Below, piece by piece: positions 20,983-61,764 of a stretch of DNA of 64,000 bases (its first letter is position 1; each line of letters starts with the position of its first letter). Below the pieces are notes generated by a model that worked only from the letters and a program-made list of their open reading frames with translations, did no database searches and had not been told where the DNA came from. A program made the position numbers and the translations under genes. The DNA comes from Candidatus Omnitrophota bacterium (GTDB lineage: Bacteria; Omnitrophota; Gorgyraeia; Gygaellales; Profunditerraquicolaceae): positions 44,009 to 108,008 of the forward strand of contig JAPLLV010000025.1 of the NCBI GenBank assembly GCA_026387405.1. The letters are read 5' to 3'.

Positions 20983-22110
20983 ATGGCTCGCTTGATAAAG
21001 CCCGCAAGTATAAGGTTAGAAGCCTCAAGTTTTTGCCAGTTACGATGCCCATGTTGTCCTCAGGCAGAAGGGATCATCAGCGGCGCTTCTGCCTGTTACG
21101 ATACCGCACCCGAAACCCATCGGCAAGAAGATTTTTTAAATCCCTGGTCTATGCACGCCCATCTCGTAAAGAATAAAATAGGCTCAGGGTATCTGACTTT
21201 TTCAAGTTTCGTCAGGTTAGTGGATAAAAACCCATGGATACGGCATATCGAATTATCCAACTGGGGAGAGGCGTTTTTGAATCCTCATCTAATTGACATC
21301 ATGGCATACGCACATAAGCACGGGATTGCGTTAACTGCCGATAACGGGGTAAATTTCAATACTGTATCAGAAGAAGCACTGGAAGCACTAGTGAAATATG
21401 GGTTTTTAAGCCTTTCTTGCTCGATAAACGGGGTAACTGACAAAACATATAAAATGTACAGCGTTGGCGGCGATCTCGAAGTAGTTTTGCGCAATATAGA
21501 AAAAATTAACACTTATAAGAAAAAATATAAAATGCTGTTGCCGTTACTTCATTGGCAGTTTGTTATATTCGGCCACAATGAACAAGAGCTGCTTCCCGCA
21601 AAAAGGCTGGCAGGAACAATGGGGATGTATTTTATCCCCAGGTTTAATGTGAGCGACGCGTATTCCCCGGTAATTCAAAAGTCTTTTATAAAGAGGCAAA
21701 CGCTCGGGGGATATTCTTCCCGGAGGGAATATTTTGAAAGGAGGGGGATCGCTAATAGGCAGAAAATGATTTGCGCGCAGCTTTGGAATGCCCCCCAGAT
21801 TAATTGGGATGGGAGGCTGTTGGGTTGCTGTGTGAATTACTGGGATGATTTCGGGAATGTTTTTGACAACGAACTTGTCGATATGCTGCAGAGTGATAAG
21901 ATCGCGTATGCCCGCCAGATGCTTTTAGGAAAAAGGCCTCCCCGCGATGATATATTATGCACCCATTGTATATACTATAAGATCATGAGAGACAAGGGTA
22001 AATGGTTAAATATGGCCGAAATCATTCTATACAAGAGCGGATATGATCTAAAATACAGGTGTATCCGTTTATTCAATGGGTATCCACTTCCGGTTAAGTA
22101 CTGTATATAA
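20983..22110 (+). CDS. radical SAM enzyme with Cys-rich SPASM/twitch-like C-terminal domain
   Basis: CX3CX2C (SSFCQLRCPCC) near the N-terminus. Cys-rich C-terminus (CAQLWN…GCCVNYWDD…CTHCIYY). Confidence 0.7.
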   Translation: MARLIKPASIRLEASSFCQLRCPCCPQAEGIISGASACYDTAPETHRQEDFLNPWSMHAHLVKNKIGSGYLTFSSFVRLVDKNPWIRHIELSNWGEAFLNPHLIDIMAYAHKHGIALTADNGVNFNTVSEEALEALVKYGFLSLSCSINGVTDKTYKMYSVGGDLEVVLRNIEKINTYKKKYKMLLPLLHWQFVIFGHNEQELLPAKRLAGTMGMYFIPRFNVSDAYSPVIQKSFIKRQTLGGYSSRREYFERRGIANRQKMICAQLWNAPQINWDGRLLGCCVNYWDDFGNVFDNELVDMLQSDKIAYARQMLLGKRPPRDDILCTHCIYYKIMRDKGKWLNMAEIILYKSGYDLKYRCIRLFNGYPLPVKYCI

Positions 22111-22142: not shown

Positions 22143-23639
22143 ATGGAAAGAATCTTACTGATAAATCCCGGGCAGGTGTATTATAAAAAAACATTTCGGA
22201 CATGTTGGCCGGGATCTATAGGCTTGCCATTGGGGATGCTTTATGCGGCTGCTGCCTTAGAAAGAGAAAGGTGCCGCGTCAAAGTGCTGGATTGTCTCGT
22301 TTCCGATCACACCATCCTGGAGAAACGCGGTGATCATTTTTTCTATGGTATCCCCGACAATAAACTGCGGACTTTGGTAAAAGAATATAAACCGGATATC
22401 GTGGCTATAGGCAGCCAATTCATGACACAGGAGGAAAATGTTTCCAGGACCGCTAAATTGGTCAAAGATATCGATACTTCTATTCAGGTAATCGTTGGCG
22501 GAGCAAATACAGGTTGCAGATACAAATATCTCCTTGAGCAGGGAGATATCGACATCGCCATAAAAGGAGAGAGCGAACAGGCTATTAGCAATCTTATTAA
22601 GTACTTTAGAGGAAATATAAAACTAGAGTCTATCTCTGGTATCGCGTATCGCAGAGAAAACCAAGTTTGCGAAACCGTTGGTCCCGAATATATCGATAAT
22701 TTGGATGGTTTGCCTCTTCCCGCCTATCATTTAGTCGATATGGAAGCTTACTTTAACCTATATAAAAAAGGAGTCTATGCGCGCGATCGTAATGTTAAAC
22801 GAGTTATACCAATGGTCACAAGCAGAGGGTGCCCGTATAGATGTATTTTTTGTTCCGTTTCGCATAGTATGGGAAAGCGTTGGCGGGCTCATTCAGCTGA
22901 ATATACCTCGCGTCACATCATAGCTGTTTCAAAACGATACAACGTAAGGCACATACATTTTGAAGACGACAATCTCTTAATGGACATAAAACGGTTCATG
23001 GCTATACTGGATACCCTAAATAAAGAAAGTATAACTTGGGATACCCCTAATGGTATCCGAGTTGATCCGCGCATAGATGAGGATATTCTAAAGAGGTTCA
23101 AGCAATGCGGATGCAAGTACCTCACGATAGGCATTGAATCCGGCGATCAGGAAGTCTTGGATAGGGTAATAAAAAAAGACATAACATTAGAAGACGTAAC
23201 GGCCTTTGCCAAGAAATGTAAAAGGATCGGCTTGCCCTTACGCGCATTTTTTATACTGGGGTTTCCCGGGGAAACGATAGAATCGATGTATAAGACCGTA
23301 GCATTTGCCTGCTTTATTCTCAAGAAGTATAATGTGGAGATAATAAATCACATCGCGACACCAATTTTTGGCACAGAACTGTACGATATCTGCCGCGATA
23401 ATGATTATTTTGCAAGCGAGGTTTCGCCGCGAACTCTCTCTGAATCGACGGTCCCGGACGGGCATTGCCTGATACGCACCGAAACGTTTACGGCAAAAGA
23501 CGTAGAATCTTTAAGTAATTCGCTTACAAGAAAAGTATACAGAAGACTATTCATCAGAGGGTTACGGTATCCGCTTAGTTCCCTGAGGAGAATAGGCAAC
23601 ACATACATGTTTATTAGGGCCCTGCGATGGTTGGTGTAA
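22143..23639 (+). CDS. cobalamin-binding (class B) radical SAM enzyme
   Basis: B12-binding-like N-terminus (IVGGANTG); VTSRGCPYRCIFCSVS. Confidence 0.8.
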   Translation: MERILLINPGQVYYKKTFRTCWPGSIGLPLGMLYAAAALERERCRVKVLDCLVSDHTILEKRGDHFFYGIPDNKLRTLVKEYKPDIVAIGSQFMTQEENVSRTAKLVKDIDTSIQVIVGGANTGCRYKYLLEQGDIDIAIKGESEQAISNLIKYFRGNIKLESISGIAYRRENQVCETVGPEYIDNLDGLPLPAYHLVDMEAYFNLYKKGVYARDRNVKRVIPMVTSRGCPYRCIFCSVSHSMGKRWRAHSAEYTSRHIIAVSKRYNVRHIHFEDDNLLMDIKRFMAILDTLNKESITWDTPNGIRVDPRIDEDILKRFKQCGCKYLTIGIESGDQEVLDRVIKKDITLEDVTAFAKKCKRIGLPLRAFFILGFPGETIESMYKTVAFACFILKKYNVEIINHIATPIFGTELYDICRDNDYFASEVSPRTLSESTVPDGHCLIRTETFTAKDVESLSNSLTRKVYRRLFIRGLRYPLSSLRRIGNTYMFIRALRWLV

Positions 23640-24544
23640 TTAGCAAAAATTGTTACGATACGAATCCAATATTTTCTATTGTTATTCCTACTTATAACCG
23701 CCGCGAACAATTAAAAGAATGCCTCGCATCATTATTCAGCCAGATTCCCGGGCGAGGTTTATTTGAGATTATCGTTATCGAAGATGGCAGCGATTGTGTT
23801 TTATGCGAAGATAAGGATTTTGGCTCCGACACGGGAAAGATACGGTATATAACTACGAGGCATCAAGGTCCGGCCGCGGCCCGGAATCTCGGCATAAAAG
23901 AAGCGCGCGGGGAGATCGTTATCTTCCTTGACGATGATGTAATAGCGGCTAGCGGGTGGGCTAAATCGGTAATAGAGAGTTGGAAAAGTTATCCAGGCAT
24001 AGATGGCATTGGCGGATATATCGTAAGTGACCCCAAAGACACTATATGCGCAAGAGTGAGTTGTGTTTTTTTTAACTGGTTCCTGGATAAGGCCGTGACG
24101 AAAGCCGATTACGCCTGTTTTATGAGCACGTGCAATGCAGGATATACTAAAAAAGCTCTCATAAGAGTCAATGGGTTTGATGAGCAGTTTAGGGGAGCGT
24201 ACGGTGAGGACCGGGATTTGAACGCGAGGATCCTACAGAGCGGCGGGAAAATGCGCTTGACTAAAGATATGATAGTTTATCACGATAGATACTTGAGTTT
24301 TTCCCGCTTCCTGACGCGAAATTTTAATTACGGGAAAGCCTCTTTTCACATATATAACAAGCACCCTAAATTCGCGCGTTCACAATTTTGCAGTTATCTG
24401 TATTTATCCAACTCGATGTTCTATGCGTTCGAAAAACATAGGGAAAAGATCCTGGCGTGTCTATTGTTAGCCGTCTCGCAAATAGCCACTCTTTGCGGAT
24501 ATTTTGTCGCTTCTTTTACCTGGCGTAGAGGAAATTCCCGATGA
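23627..24544 (+). CDS. GT2 glycosyltransferase
   Basis: FSIVIPTYNRREQL…VIEDGSD…DDDV. Confidence 0.75.
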   Translation: MVGVISKNCYDTNPIFSIVIPTYNRREQLKECLASLFSQIPGRGLFEIIVIEDGSDCVLCEDKDFGSDTGKIRYITTRHQGPAAARNLGIKEARGEIVIFLDDDVIAASGWAKSVIESWKSYPGIDGIGGYIVSDPKDTICARVSCVFFNWFLDKAVTKADYACFMSTCNAGYTKKALIRVNGFDEQFRGAYGEDRDLNARILQSGGKMRLTKDMIVYHDRYLSFSRFLTRNFNYGKASFHIYNKHPKFARSQFCSYLYLSNSMFYAFEKHREKILACLLLAVSQIATLCGYFVASFTWRRGNSR

Positions 24545-25641
24545 GCATCCTTCCGCTCACCACGAGAATTGACGCAAACCTGGGGTACGCATGCAACAAT
24601 GACTGTCTTTTCTGTTATTTTAAAGAGCGCAAAAGAACCAGGAATAGCATCTCGACTCAACAGGCGAAGAGGCTTTTTAGCCGTATCAAACGGTTGGGTA
24701 TCGAGACGCTTGAGATAACCGGCGGAGAAGTAACGATCCGAGATGATATCATTGAACTCATCGCTTTTGCCAAAAGAGACCTGCGGTTCAAGAAAATCAC
24801 AGTAATTACAAACGGGAGCAGATTCTGCGATGAGGAATTCACGGCAAGCGCTTCTGCCGCCGGGGTGGACGATGTCTTGATTTCTCTTCATGGTTCTTCT
24901 GCCAGGCTGCACGATAAACTTGTGGGAAGGGGGGGTGCTTATGATAATGCGGTTGAAGCGATAAACAACGTTATCCGGGCAGGCATATCTTGCCGGACGA
25001 ATACCGTAGTTACGGCTTATAATTACCGTGAGGCTTCAAATATCGCAGCGCTAATTTATAGCCTCGGCGTTCGTAAGGTCAATTATATTTATTTTTCTCC
25101 CTTAGATGATGCCGCTAATGTGGAAACGGATTTATGGGTAAGATATTCGGATACCGCATCGCATATCAGGGCCATGCTTAGTTTATATAAGGATAAGTTT
25201 AAGGCCATCTCTATTAAAGTATTCCCATTTTGTTTACTCGGAGGTTACGAAGAATACATAACCAATTTCTTTCAAAACATATACGATCCATATGAGTGGG
25301 ATTTTTATAATCGTGTGCGCATACGCAGGAATATGCTTCAGCGAGATTTGGCGGTAGCAGCCGGATTACTATTGTTTATGGACATAAGAAGGATCCTGCA
25401 AATAGGTTTTCGGAAGAGTTGTTACGAAAGCATCGTGCGCGTGCAGTCCTTCCGGGAGTGCGTCAAGGCGCATGTATGCAGGCGTTGCAAATATGATTAT
25501 ATATGTCCCGGTATTTGGAAATCGTATGCGCAACGTTTCGGCATGAACGAGCTTAATCCGGTACTCGGGAAAAAGATAAAAGATTTAGACTTTTGTCTTC
25601 GCAAAAGATTTTCCGATTACCCTATCGAACCTTATGCATAG
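24541..25641 (+). CDS. radical SAM/SPASM-domain enzyme
   Basis: LGYACNNDCLFCYF cluster motif; ITGGEVTI; C-terminal Cys cluster (CRRCKYDYICPG). Confidence 0.75.
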   Translation: MSILPLTTRIDANLGYACNNDCLFCYFKERKRTRNSISTQQAKRLFSRIKRLGIETLEITGGEVTIRDDIIELIAFAKRDLRFKKITVITNGSRFCDEEFTASASAAGVDDVLISLHGSSARLHDKLVGRGGAYDNAVEAINNVIRAGISCRTNTVVTAYNYREASNIAALIYSLGVRKVNYIYFSPLDDAANVETDLWVRYSDTASHIRAMLSLYKDKFKAISIKVFPFCLLGGYEEYITNFFQNIYDPYEWDFYNRVRIRRNMLQRDLAVAAGLLLFMDIRRILQIGFRKSCYESIVRVQSFRECVKAHVCRRCKYDYICPGIWKSYAQRFGMNELNPVLGKKIKDLDFCLRKRFSDYPIEPYA

Positions 25642-35013: not shown

Positions 35014-36786
35014 ATGAATATTTTCTGCCAGCGAATTTTTAAAAATATATCAGGAATACATAAGGTTATTTTTGTCTTAGTTTTAATAGCCCTGTTGGTG
35101 CGAATCCCTCTTTCGTTGATTAGATATTTTGACCCGGATGAATTTGAACATTTGCATGCCGCGCGTAACATTTATCATGGGATGGTTCCATACAAGGATT
35201 ACTTTGACCATCACACGCCTTTTTTCCACGCCTTTCTTTCTGCATTTTATATTTTCTTAGCAGATAAAATACAATTGATCTTCTTGGCGCGCTTCTTCAT
35301 GATTTTATTTACTGGCGGCATATTATATATGACCTATCGCATTGCGAAATTATTATATGGCGTAAACATCGCTTTATATTCAGTAGTATTTCTTAGTTAC
35401 GTCGTAATGTTTCAGGAAAAAACCTTAGAGATCAGAACTGACTTGCCGGCAGTTATTTTCTTACTTTTGAGTATCTATTTGTTTATGTTGGGAATGCAAG
35501 ATCAAGATAAACACGAGAGAAAAAGACAAAGGGATCACTTCCTGATGTCCGGTGTTACAATCTCTTGCGCGCTTCTTACGAATCAAAAGATGTTTTTTGC
35601 CATTTTTGCGCTACTTCTTATGTGGATTTGGGTTCTTTTTAATGGACATAGAAAGTTGTCTTTAAAAGAATGGTCTGGTCCGATATTATGGTTTATATTT
35701 GGTTTTTTTATTCCTTTCGGTATAACATGCCTATACTTTTCATTAAGCAACGCGCTGAAAGAATTTATCTATAGGTGCTTCGTAATGAATATATTGTGGA
35801 AAACCCGGTTTTTACCTTATCAATATGTTGGACAACTAATAATACAAAATCCATTCTTCAGCGTGTTAAGTGCGTTGGGTTTGTTATTTTCTACCTTCGC
35901 AGTATTTAAGAAAAAAAAGATACCCGATTATTATTTTGTGCCGGTATTCGTTACCTATGCATTTATAATCGGACTTTTTATTATTCGTGTTCCGCAGCGT
36001 CAATATTACTTATTTTTTATCCCTTTGTTGGCAGTTTATTGTGGTTTTGCTTTCCAGACGTTTATTGGATATTTTTCTTTTCACAATATTAAGGAACAAT
36101 GGAATAAGCAAAATTACTTGTATTTTGGTTTGATGCCCGTATTTTTGATAATAGTTTTATTGATCCCCTCTATGGTTACTTCCATTAGAATATATGGCGT
36201 TTTTTCAACTCCAGACAATAAACCTTACTTGATTTATGTTTTGCTGGGTCTGGTATCCGTATTATTTCTTTCTGGTTTTGCATTTTTTAGAGGCAAAAAA
36301 CAATTCTTTGCATTAATGCTAATGGTTTGTTTTTTATACCTCCCCTTTATAGAAACGTGTACAGAATTTTTAAAAAAGGATTGGAGGTTAAAATGTTCCA
36401 ATGTAGATCAATTGGATGAAATCAGATTCATTCTTCGGAATACGAATCCACAGGATACTATTTTTGATGGATTTAGGGGGACCGGGGTTTTCCGTAACCA
36501 AGCGTATTACTATTTCTTTTTGCATGCTGAAATTCAGAAGATGTTAACGCCCAGGGAGTCTTCGACAGATATCGTGGCGGCGCTACGCAATATGAAGCCA
36601 AAATTTGTAATTTATGATTGGTGCGTGGGAAGTCTACCGGGAGAAGTGAGGGCTTATATTAATGATAATTATACGCCGGTTCGTAAGGGAGAGATTTATC
36701 TGTCTTCTGATGAGACTACGGTTGTGGAATGGCGTAAATTTAGAAGACCGATATTGTTTCGGCTGAATCCTCGGCCAGCGCAATAA
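35014..36786 (+). CDS. GT-C-fold membrane glycosyltransferase (ArnT/PMT_2-like)
   Basis: Polytopic protein; first-loop motif FDPDEFEHLHAARNIYHG, DE-type. Confidence 0.65.
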   Translation: MNIFCQRIFKNISGIHKVIFVLVLIALLVRIPLSLIRYFDPDEFEHLHAARNIYHGMVPYKDYFDHHTPFFHAFLSAFYIFLADKIQLIFLARFFMILFTGGILYMTYRIAKLLYGVNIALYSVVFLSYVVMFQEKTLEIRTDLPAVIFLLLSIYLFMLGMQDQDKHERKRQRDHFLMSGVTISCALLTNQKMFFAIFALLLMWIWVLFNGHRKLSLKEWSGPILWFIFGFFIPFGITCLYFSLSNALKEFIYRCFVMNILWKTRFLPYQYVGQLIIQNPFFSVLSALGLLFSTFAVFKKKKIPDYYFVPVFVTYAFIIGLFIIRVPQRQYYLFFIPLLAVYCGFAFQTFIGYFSFHNIKEQWNKQNYLYFGLMPVFLIIVLLIPSMVTSIRIYGVFSTPDNKPYLIYVLLGLVSVLFLSGFAFFRGKKQFFALMLMVCFLYLPFIETCTEFLKKDWRLKCSNVDQLDEIRFILRNTNPQDTIFDGFRGTGVFRNQAYYYFFLHAEIQKMLTPRESSTDIVAALRNMKPKFVIYDWCVGSLPGEVRAYINDNYTPVRKGEIYLSSDETTVVEWRKFRRPILFRLNPRPAQ

Positions 36787-36893
36787 AATACTTTTCTCTA
36801 GCTAGGTAATTGTTGTCATAATTTTGCCCCCGCGATTTTTTGGCTTGGGATAGAGAGTATCTCAAGCGTTCGCGCGCTTTTAGAAAAAGATAC

Positions 36894-36923
36894 TTGACAA
36901 CCCCAATTTATTGTGATAAAAGA
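36894..36923 (+). promoter_or_regulatory. putative sigma70-like promoter in front of the ATP-grasp/KamA operon leader
   Basis: TTGACA at 36894-36899 with an A/T-rich -10-like ATAAAA about 16-17 nt downstream. The -10 is weak. Confidence 0.3.
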
Positions 36924-36998
36924 AGAGCATAGGCACAATATTTAGGAGAAAACTTTAGGAGGAAGAACAAAAAATTGGCAAATTAAAGGATAGTTTTT

Positions 36999-37032
36999 AA
37001 GGGCTCTTGGAACAAATGAGCCCTTATTTTTT
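36999..37032 (+). terminator. intrinsic terminator / attenuator hairpin 19 nt upstream of the first ATP-grasp gene
   Basis: AAGGGCTC-ttggaacaaat-GAGCCCTT followed by ATTTTTT. Confidence 0.5.
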
Positions 37033-37050
37033 AGATGAGGCCGCAACTTT

Positions 37051-38040
37051 ATGAAAACCGTTGGATTAACCTACGATTTAAAGACAGATTACAAATTTAA
37101 AGAAGGCGATCCGCAGGATGCCAACGCGGAGTTCGACCATCCTTCGACTATCGGCGTTATTGCCAAGGCCATAGAGTCGCAGGGGTACAAGGTAAAGAAG
37201 ATCGGCAATGTCACGGATGTACTGGAAAAATTAGATAACCTGGGAGTGGATATCGTTTTCAATATTTCCGAGGGCCTCTCGGGCAGGAACCGCGAATCCC
37301 AGGTGCCGATCTTGCTAGAGATGGCCGGTGTTCCTTTTGTGGGCGCCGACGCGCTTACCCTTGGCCTTACGCTCGATAAGATCATGGCCAAAAAAATATT
37401 TATCGCCGAAAAACTACCTACCCCGAAATTCTTTACGGTCAATACCGTGGAAGAACTGAATAACGCCGACCATTGTAAATTCCCCCTTATTGTTAAACCG
37501 CGATTCGAGGGTTCTTCCAAGGGCTTAAGCGACAGCTCGCGCGTGGAGAATATGGAAGAGTTAAAGATACAGGTAGAGCATACAATCTCCACCTATAAAC
37601 AGCCTGCCCTGATAGAAGAGTTTATCTCCGGCCAGGAATTTACCGTGGCCGTGGTTGGTAATGATCCCCCCGAAGCCCTGCCCGTGGTCCAGATAAAGAT
37701 CGACGGCAAGTTACAGTTGAACGATAAATTCTATACCTTTGCCAGAATAAAATCAGACAGGCTGGAATATATCTGTCCTGCTAAGATCCCCACGGAACTG
37801 AAGAACAAGCTTCAGGATCTAGCCGTCAGGACATATAACGCGGTTGAGTGCCGTGATTTCGGGAGGGTGGATTTCAGGGTGGATAGCGACGGTAAACCTT
37901 TTGTCTTGGAGATCAACCCTTTGCCCTCGCTCTCTACCGAAGACGTGTTTATGCTCTTGGCCAAGACAATAGGGATCACCTACGAAGAGATGCTTGACAA
38001 GATCCTGAAGGCAGCCTTAAAAAGGCACAATCTTAATTAA
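37051..38040 (+). CDS. D-alanine-D-alanine ligase-family ATP-grasp enzyme (copy 1)
   Basis: Ddl-like layout: N-terminal domain, then LIVKPRFEGSSKGL, the ATP-grasp lysine/Gly-rich loop, and C-terminal LEINPLPSL. Confidence 0.7.
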   Translation: MKTVGLTYDLKTDYKFKEGDPQDANAEFDHPSTIGVIAKAIESQGYKVKKIGNVTDVLEKLDNLGVDIVFNISEGLSGRNRESQVPILLEMAGVPFVGADALTLGLTLDKIMAKKIFIAEKLPTPKFFTVNTVEELNNADHCKFPLIVKPRFEGSSKGLSDSSRVENMEELKIQVEHTISTYKQPALIEEFISGQEFTVAVVGNDPPEALPVVQIKIDGKLQLNDKFYTFARIKSDRLEYICPAKIPTELKNKLQDLAVRTYNAVECRDFGRVDFRVDSDGKPFVLEINPLPSLSTEDVFMLLAKTIGITYEEMLDKILKAALKRHNLN

Positions 38041-38049
38041 AGGTATTAA

Positions 38050-39057
38050 ATGAAGATCGCGCTTACCTTTAACCTTAAAAAGAAAGACTCAACCAAACCG
38101 GCGGATTATTTTTCCGAGTTTGATTCCGAAGAGACCGTTGATGCGATCCGGGGCGCCCTGTACAAAAAAGGCCACAGCGTGGACCTGGTCGAGGCGCATC
38201 AGCAAAACCTGTTTTCTTATTTCCGGGATAACCGCGTGGATATGGTTTTTAACATTGCCGAAGGCACTTGCGGCAGGTTCCGCGAATCGGAGATCCCGGC
38301 CATACTGGATTATCTGGAAGTGCCTTACACCGGCTCAGACACATTTTCCCTGGCCCTGGCCTTAAATAAGGCCCTGACCAAAAAGATACTGCAGGCGGAA
38401 AATATTCCCACCCCGCGTTTCCAACTTTTCACTAAAGGTAACGAAGAGTTAAACCCTGACTTGATCTTTCCTTTGATCGTCAAGCCTAATTGCGAAGGCT
38501 CGGCCAAAGGCATCAATGCCGCTAATGTGGTACGCGACGAGAGCGCGCTTTTTAGAAAAGCGCGGGAGATAATAAAGGTTTATAGACAGGAGGCGCTGGC
38601 CGAGGAGTTCATTGAAGGGAAAGAACTAACGGTGGGTATCCTGGAAAACGGCAAGACCACGATCCTGCCGATACTGGAGATCGATTTTTCAAGCTGCGAA
38701 GGGAGCGGAGAGTATTTTTATTCCTGGAGGATGAAGGAATATCAGGGTGACGAACAGCAGAGGCTCACGCCCACTTTTCACTGCCCGGCGCGCCTGGATA
38801 AGGATACTGAAAGGCGCGTAAAAGAGGTGGCACTCAAGACCCATCACGCGGTGGGATGTCTAGATATCTCCCGTACCGATATACGTTTAAGCCGCGATAA
38901 CATCCCGTATGTCCTTGAGATAAATCCTTTGCCCGGGCTCGATCCCAAGGAATCTAATCTTCCCCTCATGGCCTATGCCGCGGGCATGAAATACGAAGAC
39001 CTTATTGAAGCGATCCTTATAAGCGCTGCTAAGCGTAAGAAAGCGGGGCTCAATTGA
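38050..39057 (+). CDS. D-alanine-D-alanine ligase-family ATP-grasp enzyme (copy 2)
   Basis: Paralogue of the upstream gene (LIVKPNCEGSAKGI; LEINPLPGL). Separated from it by 9 nt. Confidence 0.7.
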   Translation: MKIALTFNLKKKDSTKPADYFSEFDSEETVDAIRGALYKKGHSVDLVEAHQQNLFSYFRDNRVDMVFNIAEGTCGRFRESEIPAILDYLEVPYTGSDTFSLALALNKALTKKILQAENIPTPRFQLFTKGNEELNPDLIFPLIVKPNCEGSAKGINAANVVRDESALFRKAREIIKVYRQEALAEEFIEGKELTVGILENGKTTILPILEIDFSSCEGSGEYFYSWRMKEYQGDEQQRLTPTFHCPARLDKDTERRVKEVALKTHHAVGCLDISRTDIRLSRDNIPYVLEINPLPGLDPKESNLPLMAYAAGMKYEDLIEAILISAAKRKKAGLN

Positions 39058-40232
39058 CGAACGCGACCATAACCGAGGTTCAAAAGCTCCAGCCTGATGC
39101 GCCTGTCCGTAGATCCCAGCGGGCTCGCGATTACCAGCAGATAAGCCTGTATAAAGACGTTAATCCCCTGGATTGGGAGGATTGGCACTGGCAGCTCAAA
39201 AATAGGATCTGCACCAAGGAAGACCTTGCCCAGGTGATAGTTTTGAGCCCCGAAGAGGAAGAGGGCTTAAAAAAGGCAAGCGGAAAACTTTCTTTGGCCA
39301 TTACCCCATATTGGGCGACTTTAATGGACCCCGAAGATCCCAATTGTCCTATCCGGCGCCAGGCCGTGCCTACGGTGTACGAAACGCTTGTCGGTCCCCA
39401 CGAAATGGTTGATCCTTGCGCCGAAGACAGGGATTCTCCCGCCCCGCACCTGGTGCACCGTTATCCGGACAGGGTCTTGCTCCTAGCTACCGAACATTGC
39501 GCGATGTATTGCCGCCACTGCACCAGAAGGCGCCTTGTGGGGGAGACCAATAAAGAGGATAACTCGCCTTCCCGTTTTGATGCGGCTTTAGAATATTTAA
39601 AAGCGAACAAAAAGGTGCGGGATGTTTTGATCTCCGGGGGCGACCCGCTTACCCTGGAAGATGACGTAATCGAGGATCTGCTGCGCAAGATCCGCGACAT
39701 ATCGCATATTGAGTTCTTAAGGCTGGGTACGCGCGTGCCGGTGACATTGCCGCAGCGCATCAATGAGAAATTGGTTACCATGCTTAAGAAATATAACCCG
39801 CTCTGGATGAGTATCCATTTTAACCACCCCAAGGAGATAACCAAACGTTCTAAGATCGCCTGCGAAATGCTGGCAGATGCCGGTATCCCGCTGGGGAGCC
39901 AGAGTGTGCTCTTAAAAGGCATTAATGACCGTCCTTATATTATGAAGAAGCTGGTGCATGATTTATTGCAGATAAGGGTGCGGCCGTATTATATTTATCA
40001 GTGCGATCCCGTCCGGGGCACGCAGCATTTCCGCACCCCGGTTGCCGTAGGCATCAACATTATGGAGAAGCTGCGCGGCCATACCTCGGGCTACGCCGTG
40101 CCTACCTATGTCATTGACGGCCCCGGCGGCGGCGGAAAAATCCCCGTAGGCCCCAATTATATCCTTTCGCAGGCCAAAGGTAAGTACGTGCTCCGCAATT
40201 ACAAGGGTAAGATCTACACTTATCTGGAATAA
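39054..40232 (+). CDS. kamA: lysine 2,3-aminomutase (KamA-family radical SAM)
   Basis: HRYPDRVLLLATEHCAMYCRHCTRRR matches the KamA CX3CX2C region. The C-terminal half is KamA-like. TTG start overlaps the upstream stop (TTGA). Confidence 0.8.
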   Translation: MTNATITEVQKLQPDAPVRRSQRARDYQQISLYKDVNPLDWEDWHWQLKNRICTKEDLAQVIVLSPEEEEGLKKASGKLSLAITPYWATLMDPEDPNCPIRRQAVPTVYETLVGPHEMVDPCAEDRDSPAPHLVHRYPDRVLLLATEHCAMYCRHCTRRRLVGETNKEDNSPSRFDAALEYLKANKKVRDVLISGGDPLTLEDDVIEDLLRKIRDISHIEFLRLGTRVPVTLPQRINEKLVTMLKKYNPLWMSIHFNHPKEITKRSKIACEMLADAGIPLGSQSVLLKGINDRPYIMKKLVHDLLQIRVRPYYIYQCDPVRGTQHFRTPVAVGINIMEKLRGHTSGYAVPTYVIDGPGGGGKIPVGPNYILSQAKGKYVLRNYKGKIYTYLE

Positions 40233-40387: not shown

Positions 40388-42346
40388 ATGGAGCCTAAAG
40401 ATAAACGTAATTTTATCCTCTTGGGCCATGCCCAGTCCGGTAAAACCACGCTTTCTGAAAGTATCCTCTATTTAGCTAAGGCAACCAGCCGTAAAGGCAC
40501 TACCGCAGATGGTAATACGGTAAGCGATTACAATTTTGACGAGATTGAAAAAAAGAGCTCCATAAACGCCAGCCTGCTCTATTGTGATTATAAAGGCACG
40601 AGGATCCAGATGATCGATGCCCCCGGTTACGCGGATTTTTTAGGCGAGGTTATTTCCGGCTTACGCGCGGTAGATAGCGCGGTAGTGATAGTAGACGCGA
40701 CCGCGGGAGTTGAGGTAGGGACAGAGCGCGCCTGGCAGTTCCTGGAGGAATTCTCCCTACCCTGTATTATTTTCATTAATAAGACGGATAAACCCGAAGC
40801 CGATGTAAATAAGACCTTGTCGGATATCAAGTCGCGCTTTTCAAAGAGCGCGATGGTGGTCGATAAGCTTGACGCCCCGGAGTTAGTAGAGGCTATTGCC
40901 GAAAGCAATGATTCACTGCTGGAAAAATATTTAGAGGGTAAGGCCTTAACACCCGAAGAATTAGTTTCAGGGTTGCGTAAGGCGGTATTCGGCCGCAAGG
41001 TCTTTCCCGTAGTGATAGGTTCGGCCTCAACCGATAAAGGGGTAGCGGAGTTACTCGACCATGTTATAAAATATCTGCCGAATCCCCTGGAGCGCCAGCC
41101 TATCAAGGCGCGGCAGGCGGATAAACCGGATAGCGAGCAGGAATTAGCCTGTAGCGCAGACGGTCATCTAGCCGCCTTTGTCTTTAAGAATATTTCTGAC
41201 CCCTATGTGGGGCAGTTGACATTTTTACGTATTTTTTCCGGCACCCTGGCTTCGAACACCGCCTTTCACAATGTTAATAAAGAAACCAAAGAGCGCATCG
41301 GCACTATCTACATTATGCAGGGCAGAGAGCAAAAAGCCGTGGATACCGCCAGCTGCGGTGATATCGTGGCCCTGGCAAAATTAAAAGGGACCGCTGCTTC
41401 GGATTCCATCGGTAATGATAAGGGCCGCGTTATTTTTGAACCGATGGTATTCCCTGAACCGGCTATCTCGGCTTCGGTAAAGCCAAAATCGCGCGAAGAC
41501 GAAGAGAGGATTTCCGAGGCCCTACATAAATTAGCTGCGGAGGATCCTACTTTCAAGGTCACCCATGACCCCCAGACCAAGGAATTGATCATTTCAGGGC
41601 TAGGCGATCAGCACCTGGCGGTTATGGTAGGCAGGCTGCAAAAGCGTTTCAAGGTTGAAGTCGAACTTGGCAAGCCCAAGGTTTCCTATAAAGAGACGAT
41701 TACTAAGAGCGTCAAGGTGCAGGGAAAATTCAAACGTCAGTCAGGGGGCAGGGGCCAATACGGGGATGTCTGGATCGAGATCGAGCCTTTAGGACGGAGT
41801 GAGGGTTTTGAGTTCGTGGATAAGATTTTCGGCGGGGCTATCCCCAGGAATTTTATCCCCTCGGTTGAAAAGGGCGTGGTCAATGCCTTGGTTCAAGGGG
41901 CAGTTGCCGGTTATCCGATAGTTGATGTGCGGGTGAGGCTGGTAGACGGCTCATACCATGAGGTGGATTCCTCGGATATGGCTTTTCAGATCGCGGGGGG
42001 CATGGCTCTAAGAAAAGCCGTGCTTGCCGCCGGGCCCGTATTATTGGAGCCGATCATGGATGTAGAGATAACCATCCCGGAGGAGTGTTTGGGCGCAATA
42101 TCCGGAGATGTTAATTCCCGGCGCGGACGGATCATGGGTATGGATGTTAAAGCCAAATCCCAGATTATCAAGGCCACCGTTCCATTGTCGGAGATGTTTA
42201 CCTATGCCAATGATCTACGTTCCCTTACCGGGGGAAGAGGGACTTATATCATGCGTTTTTCGCATTACGAAGAGGTGCCGCACAAACAAGCCTCGACCAT
42301 TATCAGCCAGTATCAGGCCTCCAGGAAGCCCGAAGAAGAACAATAA
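40388..42346 (+). CDS. EF-G-family translational GTPase paralogue (divergent; switch-II His replaced)
   Basis: All EF-G domains are recognisable: G domain, domain II, and domains IV/V with SGGRGQYGDVWIE. G1 is GHAQSGKTT, switch I lacks RGITI, and switch II reads DAPGYADF instead of DTPGHxDF. G4 is NKTD. Confidence 0.75.
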   Translation: MEPKDKRNFILLGHAQSGKTTLSESILYLAKATSRKGTTADGNTVSDYNFDEIEKKSSINASLLYCDYKGTRIQMIDAPGYADFLGEVISGLRAVDSAVVIVDATAGVEVGTERAWQFLEEFSLPCIIFINKTDKPEADVNKTLSDIKSRFSKSAMVVDKLDAPELVEAIAESNDSLLEKYLEGKALTPEELVSGLRKAVFGRKVFPVVIGSASTDKGVAELLDHVIKYLPNPLERQPIKARQADKPDSEQELACSADGHLAAFVFKNISDPYVGQLTFLRIFSGTLASNTAFHNVNKETKERIGTIYIMQGREQKAVDTASCGDIVALAKLKGTAASDSIGNDKGRVIFEPMVFPEPAISASVKPKSREDEERISEALHKLAAEDPTFKVTHDPQTKELIISGLGDQHLAVMVGRLQKRFKVEVELGKPKVSYKETITKSVKVQGKFKRQSGGRGQYGDVWIEIEPLGRSEGFEFVDKIFGGAIPRNFIPSVEKGVVNALVQGAVAGYPIVDVRVRLVDGSYHEVDSSDMAFQIAGGMALRKAVLAAGPVLLEPIMDVEITIPEECLGAISGDVNSRRGRIMGMDVKAKSQIIKATVPLSEMFTYANDLRSLTGGRGTYIMRFSHYEEVPHKQASTIISQYQASRKPEEEQ

Positions 42347-42379: not shown

Positions 42380-43081
42380 ATGAAGATAAGCGTATTTTCT
42401 ATCTCTACTCTTACGCCGGGGAAATATAATATCAAGGACCAGCGCCTTGACGCCGTGGACAAAATAGTCAAGGCCAAGAAAAAAACCTATGTGCAGGTGG
42501 AGGTGGTCGGAGCGGAAGCGGTATTCGAAGCAGACGCGCTTCTGGCGCTTGAAGATATGCGTTCGGACCTGATCCTAAGGGACCTGGAGTTCATAGAGAC
42601 GCGCCTCGGCCGTTGCGGCGATGAGAAGGAAAAAGGACTTTTGCTCAAACTTAAAGGGATCCTGGAGAAAGAGCAGTTTCTTTTTAGCGCCGGCTTGGGG
42701 GAAGAAGAAATCCAGTCCATGGCAAGCTATAGTTTGGTAACCTTAAAACCGGTTGTTATGGCCAGGCAGGAAGAGACGGATAACCCCAATGATCTATTGG
42801 CCAGGGCCCTCAGAGAAAGCGGGTATTTGAGTTTTTTTACCGCCGGGGAGAAAGAGACGCGCGCCTGGTTGATCAGAAAAGGGACTTCTGCCTGGGAGGC
42901 CGCGGGGGTAATACATTCAGATATCCAGAAAGGGTTTATCCGCGCCGAGATCATCGGTTACGATGATTATATTAATGCCGGCGGCGAGACTCCGGCCAAG
43001 CAGCAGGGGAAGATGCGCCTGGAGCAAAAAGAATATGTGATGCAGGATTGCGATCTGGCGAATTTTAGGTTTAACAAATAA
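42380..43081 (+). CDS. YchF/Ola1-like protein lacking the P-loop and most of the G domain (coiled-coil + TGS domains retained)
   Basis: C-terminus TRAWLIRKGTSAWEAAGVIHSDIQKGFIRAEII…GKMRLEQKEYVMQDCDLANFRFN aligns closely to the YchF TGS domain. The N-terminus starts after the position of the Walker A motif. About 50 aa around G3/G4 are also missing. Confidence 0.7.
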   Translation: MKISVFSISTLTPGKYNIKDQRLDAVDKIVKAKKKTYVQVEVVGAEAVFEADALLALEDMRSDLILRDLEFIETRLGRCGDEKEKGLLLKLKGILEKEQFLFSAGLGEEEIQSMASYSLVTLKPVVMARQEETDNPNDLLARALRESGYLSFFTAGEKETRAWLIRKGTSAWEAAGVIHSDIQKGFIRAEIIGYDDYINAGGETPAKQQGKMRLEQKEYVMQDCDLANFRFNK

Positions 43082-60930: not shown

Positions 60931-61764
60931 ATGAATAGAAGATTGTTGGTAATCCTGATAATTATGATAGCAGCGGTAATTTCTCTTGCGGTATTCATGG
61001 GAAAGGGCCATAGAAAATCCGCAAAAGTGACTAAATCAACTAATGTAACCGCTCCGGTTTCCAGCTCTGCCGGGGCCCTGTTGGCCCGGGCAAAGGACTT
61101 TGAGGCAAAGGGCAATCTCTGGGAGGCCAAACTCGTTTATCAGCAGTTAATTGCGGCTTATGCAAATTCCCCGGAGGTGATGGATTGGCAAAAGAAGTCC
61201 GAAGAATTGAATATGGGATTGTTGTTTTCTCCCGCGATCACGCCTAAAAGCGTTTCCTACGAGATAAAGCACGGCGATACGCTTACCAAGATCGCCAAAG
61301 AGTTCAAGACTACCACCCAGCTGATCATGAAGAGTAATCATCTTTCCGACGATAAGATCGTTCCCGGGAGAAAGATCAAAGTTTGGAATACTCCTTTTAG
61401 CATACTTGTGGATAAATCCCAGAATATCCTTATGTTAAAGAGTGGAGAAGAGATATTAAAGACTTATATTGTTTCGACGGGTGTAAATAATTCTACGCCG
61501 GTGGGCACATATAAGATTAATAATAAGCTTGTCAATCCTACCTGGTTTAAGGCAGGGGCGGTGGTGGCCCCGGGAAGCGCGGATAACCTCCTGGGTACGC
61601 GCTGGCTGGGATTTGACCTCCCCGGTTATGGTATTCACGGTACCATTGATCCACAGAGCCTAGGCAAGCAGGTCACGCAGGGGTGCGTGCGCATGGCCAA
61701 TAGCGAAGTGGAAGAGTTATATTCTATCGTCCCAACCGGCATTGAAGTAACAATCGTTGATTAA
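60931..61764 (+). CDS. L,D-transpeptidase (YkuD family) with LysM domain
   Basis: Signal anchor; LysM (YEIKHGDTLTKIAKEF); catalytic GIHGT…GCVRM. Confidence 0.8.
   Translation: MNRRLLVILIIMIAAVISLAVFMGKGHRKSAKVTKSTNVTAPVSSSAGALLARAKDFEAKGNLWEAKLVYQQLIAAYANSPEVMDWQKKSEELNMGLLFSPAITPKSVSYEIKHGDTLTKIAKEFKTTTQLIMKSNHLSDDKIVPGRKIKVWNTPFSILVDKSQNILMLKSGEEILKTYIVSTGVNNSTPVGTYKINNKLVNPTWFKAGAVVAPGSADNLLGTRWLGFDLPGYGIHGTIDPQSLGKQVTQGCVRMANSEVEELYSIVPTGIEVTIVD

Follow-up and report, generated by a model that had tools for sequence, protein, structure and literature searches.

Two Ddl-fold ATP-grasp ligases encoded with a lysine 2,3-aminomutase in Omnitrophota: a candidate cassette for beta-lysine peptides

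In pyrrolysine biosynthesis the rearranged diamino acid made by a radical S-adenosylmethionine (SAM) lysine mutase, PylB, is joined to a second amino acid by the ATP-grasp ligase PylC; PylB is not an enzyme of the pyridoxal phosphate (PLP)-dependent KamA family. ATP-grasp enzymes also make dipeptide osmolytes: Ngg, a GNAT acetyltransferase combined with an ATP-grasp ligase, makes N-acetylglutaminylglutamine amide, and the N-acetylaspartylglutamate (NAAG) and carnosine synthases are likewise ATP-grasp enzymes. Here we describe a locus in a 64,000-nucleotide stretch of a Candidatus Omnitrophota genome (contig JAPLLV010000025.1; the whole stretch is called the window) in which three adjacent genes, graspA, graspB and kamA, encode two ATP-grasp ligases with the fold of D-alanine-D-alanine ligase (Ddl) and a KamA-type aminomutase. 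The initial annotation of this DNA had held that the combination is not a described pathway. Within the searchable literature on beta-lysine, KamA, ATP-grasp, Ddl and Omnitrophota this stands, as we found no description of a ligase-ligase-KamA cassette. It has to be narrowed in one respect: the negamycin cluster of Kitasatospora does co-localise beta-lysine formation with an ATP-grasp amide-forming enzyme, the only described pairing of the two that the searchable literature yielded.

We favor the possibility that KamA supplies beta-lysine to the two ligases and that these build a short, unblocked beta-lysine peptide or amide, a cytoplasmic small molecule, and we put the probability of this reading at roughly 55%. 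In the first step, which homology and active-site residues support well, KamA, with its [4Fe-4S] cluster, SAM and PLP, would turn L-lysine into beta-lysine (3,6-diaminohexanoate). In the second, graspA and graspB would each make an acyl-phosphate with ATP and join an amine to it as Ddl does, a step to which gene fusions and the Ddl mechanism point. Beta-lysine would most probably be the acyl donor, since the ligase type that is fused to KamA (type I, see below) also keeps the Ddl residues for a free ammonium. The two ligases might act in sequence or as a heterodimer, and candidate products are a beta-lysyl-amino-acid, a tripeptide or a short beta-lysine oligomer, each N-unblocked. The third step is the weakest, and a guess: the product could serve as a cytoplasmic organic cation or compatible solute in the core physiology of this Omnitrophota clade. 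A beta-lysine peptide made by KamA and the ligases was also what the initial annotation had proposed; the idea gains from the conservation of the triad, from fusions in both orders and from the lysine-binding residues, while the exact product stays a prediction.

The distribution of the cassette bears most directly on this proposal. One genome per GTDB species was scanned with a family motif taken from a 9-sequence alignment, which gave at least 596 confirmed hits; the best 80 were used, their flanks were searched with the window proteins, and counts refer to the 52 loci in which the ligase block is flanked on both sides by 1.5 kb or more. KamA was present in 48 of the 52, and two ligases together with KamA in 46. 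Among Omnitrophota every locus with adequate flank had KamA (38/38, including metagenome-assembled genomes (MAGs) labelled Planctomycetales that share the synteny). Other bacterial carriers were Kryptonia, Bacteroidota, Dehalococcoidales and Deltaproteobacteria, archaeal carriers were Bathyarchaeia, Thermoplasmatales, Methanomethylophilaceae, Hadarchaeota and Nitrososphaerales, and gene order varied among these non-Omnitrophota cassettes. The initial annotation had proposed a gene-neighbourhood survey of the Ddl-Ddl-KamA triad as a check, and the triad proves to be kept in related genomes and well beyond Omnitrophota. Because the same genes recur in the same order in dozens of genomes, the three-gene arrangement is far beyond chance. 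Furthermore, the enzymes occur as single proteins in several combinations: (i) KamA-ligase fusions (P0227 and P0238; 738-residue proteins in four archaeal loci, L036, L038, L045 and L074); (ii) a ligase-KamA fusion (P0215); (iii) ligase-ligase fusions, seen in many proteins of 650-720 residues; and (iv) ligase-GNAT fusions, formed by the second ligase in Thermoplasmatales, Methanomethylophilaceae and Hadarchaeota. Chance adjacency of KamA and the ligases is excluded.

Both ligases match Pfam Dala_Dala_lig_C (graspA E 3e-40, graspB E 7e-34) and are paralogous at 37% identity (E 1e-67), so that the two tandem Ddl-family ATP-grasp ligases reported initially are confirmed. ATP-grasp superfamily membership is indicated by matches to Pfam ATP-grasp_3/_4 and Dala_Dala_lig_C and, by model, by the fold. 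Neither protein matches Pfam Dala_Dala_lig_N, although the fold of that domain is kept in the graspA model. The AlphaFold model of graspA (predicted local distance difference test score 80, predicted template-modelling (TM) score 0.83), which comes from a shallow alignment and was the one confident model of five, matches Ddl structures over its full length with TM scores of 0.77-0.85 at 22-27% identity. The nearest solved structures to the ligases are all Ddl/Van ligases, and a family-profile search of solved structures found nothing closer. Columns for ATP, Mg and catalysis (K, K, E, EE, R-D-R and E-N) are invariant in graspA and graspB; by alignment the equivalents of the transition-state and Mg residues Arg255, Asp257, Glu270 and Asn272 of Ddl are present, and those of Glu15 and Ser150 are retained.

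The departures from Ddl are equally consistent. The top NCBIfam matches of both ligases are Ddl models, all under their curated cut-offs: NF002378 gives 196.4 bits for graspA and 189.7 for graspB against a cut-off of 243, TIGR01205 gives 166.5 and 155.0 against 245.65, and the Ddl equivalog models are missed by far more. The Ddl motif HGxxGEDGxxQG is absent and an invariant FN(I/L)xEGxxGRxRExxxP stands instead; in graspA, going by sequence alignment only, Lys215 and Tyr216 of the Ddl omega-loop are replaced by Arg and Ile, Ser281 by Asp and Leu282 by Val. A search of 1.84 billion cluster representatives returned at least 1,182 homologues (clusters at 50% identity) at E <=1e-30, and within the family scores to graspA are 205 bits or higher (the 150th best is 206), as against at most 114 bits for solved Ddl enzymes. 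Judged by sequence, graspA and graspB belong to a large distinct subfamily and are not housekeeping Ddl, because their scores lie below the cut-offs, FNxxEGxxGRxRE takes the place of HGxxGEDG and the family is found beside KamA in archaea. A firm grouping with housekeeping Ddl, which the initial annotation had named as evidence against its own proposal, was not seen. No mur/dcw genes were found among the window proteins scanned. To our knowledge Bathyarchaeia, Thermoplasmatales, Hadarchaeota and Nitrososphaerales make no murein, and Thermoplasmatales lack a cell wall altogether. A peptidoglycan role is excluded for the family as a whole, because these archaeal carriers make no murein, and the peptidoglycan modification that the initial annotation had listed among possible products is correspondingly disfavoured.

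The third protein is predicted, with a small reservation, to be a lysine 2,3-aminomutase. It aligns nearly without gaps to the Clostridium subterminale enzyme (2A5H; E 6.5e-146), with the CxxxCxxC motif at C150/C154/C157 and PLP lysine K362 at the position of Lys337. D318 and D355 align without gaps to Asp293 and Asp330 of 2A5H, which bind the epsilon-ammonium of the lysine side chain; according to Ruzicka and Frey, glutamate 2,3-aminomutase reportedly has Lys and Asn at these positions. Both Asp residues are kept in the window KamA, in L004 and L006 and in the fusions P0227 and P0238, and the fused relative P0215 has Gln at the position of Asp293. The protein passes TIGR00238 for the KamA family (349.4 bits, cut-off 199.2) and narrowly misses the AblA-type equivalog (515.3 against 525.4 bits) because its last ~50 residues are absent: the match stops at position 360 of 417 with the C-terminal segment missing, and the protein ends at residue 367 of 416 of 2A5H, a short C-terminal form. 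Cassette-linked KamAs of other phyla score 433-502 bits on the same equivalog. Other models are missed by more (glutamate-type 472 bits against a cut-off of 650, arginine-type 401 against 600, EpmB 240.7 against 369.3).

A neighbour-joining tree and four signature columns divide the ligases into two types that appear to be ancient, both of which keep the catalytic residues. Type I, to which the ligases of the KamA fusions belong, has retained four residues: the counterparts of Glu15 and Ser150 of Ddl, the Arg in GRxRE and the Lys in GSSKG. Type II has lost all four signature residues and is fused to, or followed by, a GNAT. Ddl uses Glu15 and Ser150 to bind the ammonium of the D-alanine that serves as acyl donor. 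As their equivalents are kept in type I and lost in type II, we infer that type I would activate a free-amine donor, most simply beta-lysine, and that type II may act on an N-blocked (acetylated) intermediate. Both graspA and graspB are of type I, graspB forming an Omnitrophota branch of its own within the type I clade, and most other lineages add the second ligase type and a GNAT acetyltransferase. A search of the window and of the Omnitrophota loci turned up no GNAT homologue. With two type I ligases and no GNAT, the Omnitrophota product should have its amines free. In other lineages the GNATs are of generic kinds (RimI-, AAC(6')- or PseH-like in an NCBIfam scan, in which no beta-lysine acetyltransferase model was listed for them). 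An AblB-type enzyme was considered and rejected, as the window and the Omnitrophota loci have none and the GNATs elsewhere are not AblB.

Within Omnitrophota the cassette behaves as a core gene set. Between the window and its relatives graspA is 71-82% identical, graspB 70-78% and KamA 72-85%, as against 60-74% for elongation factor G (EF-G), about 61-72% for PurH and 45-59% for FolC; in L003 and L004 graspA is 80-81% identical and EF-G 72-74%, and a graspA identical to that of the window has been deposited from a Candidatus Omnitrophica MAG. Third-position GC content (GC3) of the triad is 0.59-0.63, like that of EF-G and PurH, and that of the adjoining glycan genes is 0.37-0.50 (the window as a whole has 43% GC). 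The position is also fixed, upstream of EF-G, a YchF-like gene, PurH, FolC and MnmE. Re-reading the sequence bore out every detail of the three open reading frames (ORFs) and the TTGA coupling reported initially (Table 1). Nine nucleotides separate graspA from graspB, with AAAGG before the graspB ATG, and at the TTGA junction the graspB stop TGA (39055-39057) lies over the KamA start TTG (39054-39056) in a 4-nucleotide overlap. KamA has no in-frame ATG or GTG ahead of the region that aligns to the solved lysine 2,3-aminomutase, and in L004 KamA is likewise called at 392 residues, with the graspB/KamA overlap preserved. Between KamA and EF-G lies a separate promoter-like site (11/12 matches). 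Given the 9-nucleotide gap, the 4-nucleotide overlap, the promoter-like site and terminator upstream and the separate promoter-like site before EF-G, the best explanation is that graspA, graspB and kamA form one operon encoding a small biosynthetic module.

Table 1. Positions in the window of the cassette genes, their leader and neighbouring features
Feature	Positions	Strand	Sequence details	Assignment
graspA	37051-38040	+	ATG start, 329 residues	Ddl-fold ATP-grasp ligase, type I clade
graspB	38050-39057	+	ATG start, 335 residues	Paralogous Ddl-fold ATP-grasp ligase, type I
kamA	39054-40232	+	TTG start, 392 residues	KamA-type radical-SAM/PLP lysine 2,3-aminomutase (predicted)
Promoter-like site	36894-36922	+	TTGACA, 17-nucleotide spacer, TG-extended -10 (TGaTAAAAG)	Consensus match
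Leader core	36957-36986	+	AGGAGG (36957-36962), 12 nucleotides, TTG mini-ORF TTG GCA AAT TAA (36975-36986)	Putative translated mini-ORF
Terminator-like hairpin	36999-37032	+	AAGGGCTC / GAGCCCTT, 11-nucleotide loop, T-run	18 nucleotides before graspA ATG
GAGGCC(G/A)CAACTT motif	37033-37050			Just before graspA start
EF-G	40388-42346		652 residues	Short EF-G
YchF-like gene	42380-43081		233 residues	YchF C-terminal domain
Glycan cluster	about 10500-36800			Cell-surface glycan synthesis
SPASM/HxsC-like proteins	20983-22110 and 24541-25641			Radical SAM
B12-binding protein	22143-23639			Radical SAM methyltransferase-like
LdtE-like protein	60931-61764		277 residues	Weak similarity to L,D-transpeptidase

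Immediately 5' of graspA, and whatever gene precedes it, a leader unit of ~100 nucleotides is always present in those Omnitrophota whose graspA is at least ~69% identical to that of the window, about 35 loci in all with the window included (examples are L004:9875-9990, L047:1394-1529 and L083:6809-6944). The promoter-like block TTGACA ... TGTGATAAAAAAT is kept upstream of graspA in ~35 Omnitrophota loci with differing upstream genes; a generic promoter scan did not list the window site. Between promoter and terminator only GGAGG and AA[AG]TTGGAAAAA, 12-14 nucleotides apart, are conserved in 30 aligned leaders. In most loci the TTG opens an ORF of 1-7 codons (MEK*, MEKIG*, MKK*, MKN*; MAN* in the window), and this mini-ORF is probably translated. 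The hairpin, which a generic scan missed because its loop exceeds 8 nucleotides, is a stem in the single-sequence centroid fold and the sole consensus helix found by RNAalifold in the 30 leaders (8 pairs). It shows some compensatory change, one pair being GC in 20 leaders and AU in 7, and lies 2-140 nucleotides from the graspA start across loci. The leader core has no conserved secondary structure in the 30 leaders. The leader thus looks like a candidate translation-coupled transcription attenuator, and cassette expression would probably be gated by read-through of its terminator. Two other forms of control were considered. A riboswitch aptamer is unlikely, as RNAalifold found the terminator helix only; Rfam gave no match at gathering thresholds anywhere in the window and chance-level matches only (E above 2) in 36750-37100. 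A lysine-sensing leader peptide is unsupported: many leaders encode M-E-K or M-K-K, but that of the window encodes M-A-N-stop and some M-stop.

Two side observations touch on the same region. In some relatives (L030, L040, L066, L077 and L084) palindromic inserts of 60-140 nucleotides carrying the GAGGCC(G/A)CAACTT motif lie between terminator and graspA, and may be a small repeated element. In Kryptonia (L051:6098-6622) and a Bacteroidota MAG (L071:37-450) a specialised NusG/KOW paralogue precedes a ligase-ligase-GNAT-KamA operon, a position that suggests processive antitermination of the cassette.

Four other explanations of the cassette deserve consideration. It is possible, though we think it unlikely, that the ligases attach beta-lysine to a macromolecule, either a protein (as an EpmA analogue acting on elongation factor P (EF-P), or by tailing of the RimK/TTL type) or a cell-surface glycan. 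Protein-modifying ATP-grasp enzymes are well known, RimK, TTL and LysX among them, and conservation of the triad above EF-G would fit a constrained macromolecular partner; the type I ligases, on the other hand, retain the Ddl residues for a free amino acid donor, no candidate carrier or target gene accompanies the cassette, and by its scores (515 against 241 bits) KamA lies closer to the true lysine aminomutases than to EpmB. The leader resembles a ribosome-sensing mini-ORF attenuator, and EF-G followed by the YchF-like gene comes next in 19 of 38 Omnitrophota loci, but EF-G has its own promoter-like site and is missing from this place in the deeper Omnitrophota loci and in all other phyla, and functional coupling to EF-G was rejected as a general feature on these grounds. 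A link to glycan modification fared similarly. A large glycan-synthesis cluster lies directly upstream of the cassette in the window and in L004, yet these genes are not conserved neighbours, those of L003 differ, and the NusG-led operon of Kryptonia has no glycan genes.

A secreted bioactive beta-lysine peptide, antibiotic-like and comparable to negamycin or the streptothricins, as opposed to a physiological metabolite, would be distinctly less expected. The negamycin cluster offers the precedent of beta-lysine formation paired with an ATP-grasp enzyme. The specialised NusG paralogue ahead of the cassette in Kryptonia and Bacteroidota is in keeping with it, as many secondary-metabolite and capsule operons follow such paralogues. 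The same is true of the leader, mini-ORF plus terminator being the usual architecture of antibiotic-responsive attenuators. The GNATs weakly resemble aminoglycoside and streptothricin acetyltransferases and could confer self-resistance, but Omnitrophota have no GNAT. In addition, no exporter, tailoring enzyme or resistance gene was found in the window, and the presence of the cassette in 38 of 38 adequately flanked Omnitrophota loci, at a fixed core position and with core codon usage, is unlike an accessory cluster.

We consider it very unlikely that KamA has a substrate other than lysine, in which case the ligases would join a different beta-amino acid. The score just below the AblA equivalog, the substantial scores on the glutamate (472) and arginine (401) models and the Gln at Asp293 in P0215 could be read in that way, but the latter two models are missed by wide margins and Asp293 and Asp330 are kept in the window, L004, L006, P0227 and P0238. 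A narrower form of the macromolecular explanation, in which the ligases are a new, EpmA-independent ATP-grasp system that beta-lysylates a translation component (EF-P or another factor), is a long shot of a similar order, if anything a shade longer; were it true, the conservation, the position by EF-G and the YchF-like gene and the ribosome-sensing leader would all reflect that role. Least credible of all is a role as cell-wall dipeptide ligases, whether as housekeeping Ddl or as a variant placing beta-lysine in the peptidoglycan stem or cross-bridge: the top named families and nearest solved structures are Ddl/Van ligases, the organism makes murein (it has an L,D-transpeptidase-like gene) and a COG1181 survey scores ddl as conserved in Omnitrophota, a score that paralogues of the graspA/graspB type might satisfy, but the proteins fall below every curated Ddl cut-off, HGxxGEDG, omega-loop Lys215/Tyr216 and Ser281 are all replaced, the family stands at 205 bits or more to graspA against 114 or fewer for solved Ddl, the ligase-KamA cassette occurs in archaea without murein and no mur/dcw genes were found nearby among the window proteins scanned.

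The synthesis of a small beta-lysine peptide, which we continue to favor, also has points to its disadvantage. Product, substrates and activity are predictions. KamA falls below the AblA equivalog cut-off and has no C-terminal ~50 residues, its lysine specificity would rest on two residues and homology, and the division of the ligases into types I and II rests on a distance tree and four columns and is not a robust phylogeny. For an osmolyte pathway in organisms sampled mainly from freshwater and groundwater, such conservation, exceeding even EF-G, is out of the ordinary and could instead reflect a macromolecular substrate. Membrane proteins offer a mild hint in favor of a solute product: in 10 deeper-branching Omnitrophota loci (among them L011, L012, L013, L020, L024, L025, L029, L033 and L060) a protein of 222-233 residues with two PF05552 mechanosensitive-channel transmembrane-helix repeats adjoins the cassette directly upstream of graspA, and in L065 (7235-7915) it lies directly downstream of KamA. 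These loci do not have the conserved leader, and a PF05552 homologue is absent from the window. Finally, a few family members (L010, L059) have no KamA within 7 kb, and the ligase family as a whole is not restricted to beta-lysine, since some members are without KamA and, in place of it, certain double-ligase fusions have an S58 peptidase as partner. The latter are single-chain proteins of 697-724 residues followed by a Peptidase_S58 gene with no KamA nearby (L008:8001-11432 and L091:2505-5310; in L091 the two reading frames overlap). Peptidase_S58 is the family of DmpA and BapA, enzymes that cleave D- or beta-amino acids from the N terminus, and the pairing is in keeping with ligases that produce unusual small peptides. 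At L090:180-2537 a double-ligase fusion precedes the beginning of a GNAT similar to the cassette GNAT of Kryptonia.

Several observations concern the surroundings of the cassette. The EF-G is short, matching its model in two stretches without ~45 residues of the G-domain region, and the YchF-like protein has only the YchF C-terminal domain (model positions 275-367 of 368) and no P-loop N-terminal domain; the synteny of these two genes is kept across Omnitrophota. The upstream glycan cluster, with GC3 below that of core genes, includes PMT_2/Agl23-like membrane proteins, several glycosyltransferases of the GT2 and GT4 families, a gene that synteny with L004 marks as Wzy_C-type and the three radical SAM proteins of Table 1. 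The LdtE-like protein (E 7e-13) indicates that the organism probably makes peptidoglycan. A contig labelled Margulisiibacteriota (L047) and others labelled Planctomycetales or Planctomycetia (L018, L027, L064 and others) carry the cassette at 75-82% identity with the full Omnitrophota synteny, which suggests that they are mislabelled or mis-binned Omnitrophota.

If the reading we favor is correct, ATP-grasp-made peptides would be a widespread and uncharacterised use of beta-lysine, found in bacteria and archaea of dozens of lineages that have not been cultured. It would also split off from cell-wall synthesis at least 1,182 clusters mis-annotated as 'D-alanine-D-alanine ligase', a matter of consequence for metabolic reconstructions in which ddl is scored by COG. 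The two sequence-defined ligase types would amount to a substrate prediction, with a free-amine donor for type I and an N-blocked donor for type II. The leader would be a candidate attenuator from a phylum for which hardly any regulation is known.

How, then, does the cassette stand relative to the described systems? With Ddl and VanA the ligases share the three-domain ATP-grasp fold over their full length, the ATP/Mg and transition-state residues and the Glu15 and Ser150 equivalents, and the chemistry is likely to match, with the amine of one amino acid attacking the acyl-phosphate of another. They differ from these enzymes in their low identity (22-27%), their scores below cut-off, the FNxxEGxxGRxRE motif and, in graspA, the Arg-Ile omega-loop and Asp for Ser281. 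Furthermore, the cassette ligases are tandem or fused, are linked or fused to KamA and GNAT, lie outside mur/dcw and occur in archaea. The AblA/AblB pathway to N-epsilon-acetyl-beta-lysine in methanogens (KamA/YodP in Bacillus) resembles the cassette in that a KamA-type aminomutase feeds a dedicated enzyme encoded beside it, and a GNAT is also part of the cassette in many non-Omnitrophota lineages; the window and the Omnitrophota loci, in contrast, have no GNAT and have two ATP-grasp ligases, which AblAB is without. In the EpmB/EpmA system, too, beta-lysine from a KamA homologue is attached, here to EF-P, by an ATP-dependent ligase through an amide bond, but the window KamA reaches only 241 bits on EpmB, with a cut-off of 369, and its partner is an ATP-grasp enzyme instead of a lysyl-tRNA-synthetase paralogue. 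No efp or epmA was found in the window, where none of the ~37 proteins scanned matched a lysyl-tRNA-synthetase-like family. With neither an AblB-type GNAT (window and Omnitrophota loci) nor EpmA found, the distinction from both systems that the initial annotation had drawn is upheld.

The remaining comparisons are with systems that make small molecules. Negamycin biosynthesis also depends on hydroxylation of lysine, on N-methylation and on a haem N-N-forming enzyme; the window has none of the three, and the negamycin genes form an accessory actinomycete cluster as opposed to a core cassette that crosses domains. Ngg and the NAAG and carnosine synthases resemble the cassette in that ATP-grasp enzymes make small, sometimes N-acetylated, di- and tripeptides that serve as solutes, and the GNAT fusion of Ngg is echoed by the fusion of type II ligases to GNATs; these enzymes differ in belonging to a RimK-like and not a Ddl-like ATP-grasp subfamily, in their other substrates and in having no aminomutase. 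The closest mechanistic analogy would be PylB/PylC, in which a rearranged lysine is likewise handed to an ATP-grasp ligase. The 60 solved structures that best match the ligase family profile do not include PylC, and pylD, pylS and pylT were not found near the cassette. Taken together, the cassette resembles Ddl in its chemistry and PylB/PylC in its logic, and by the features that define each of these systems it would belong to neither.

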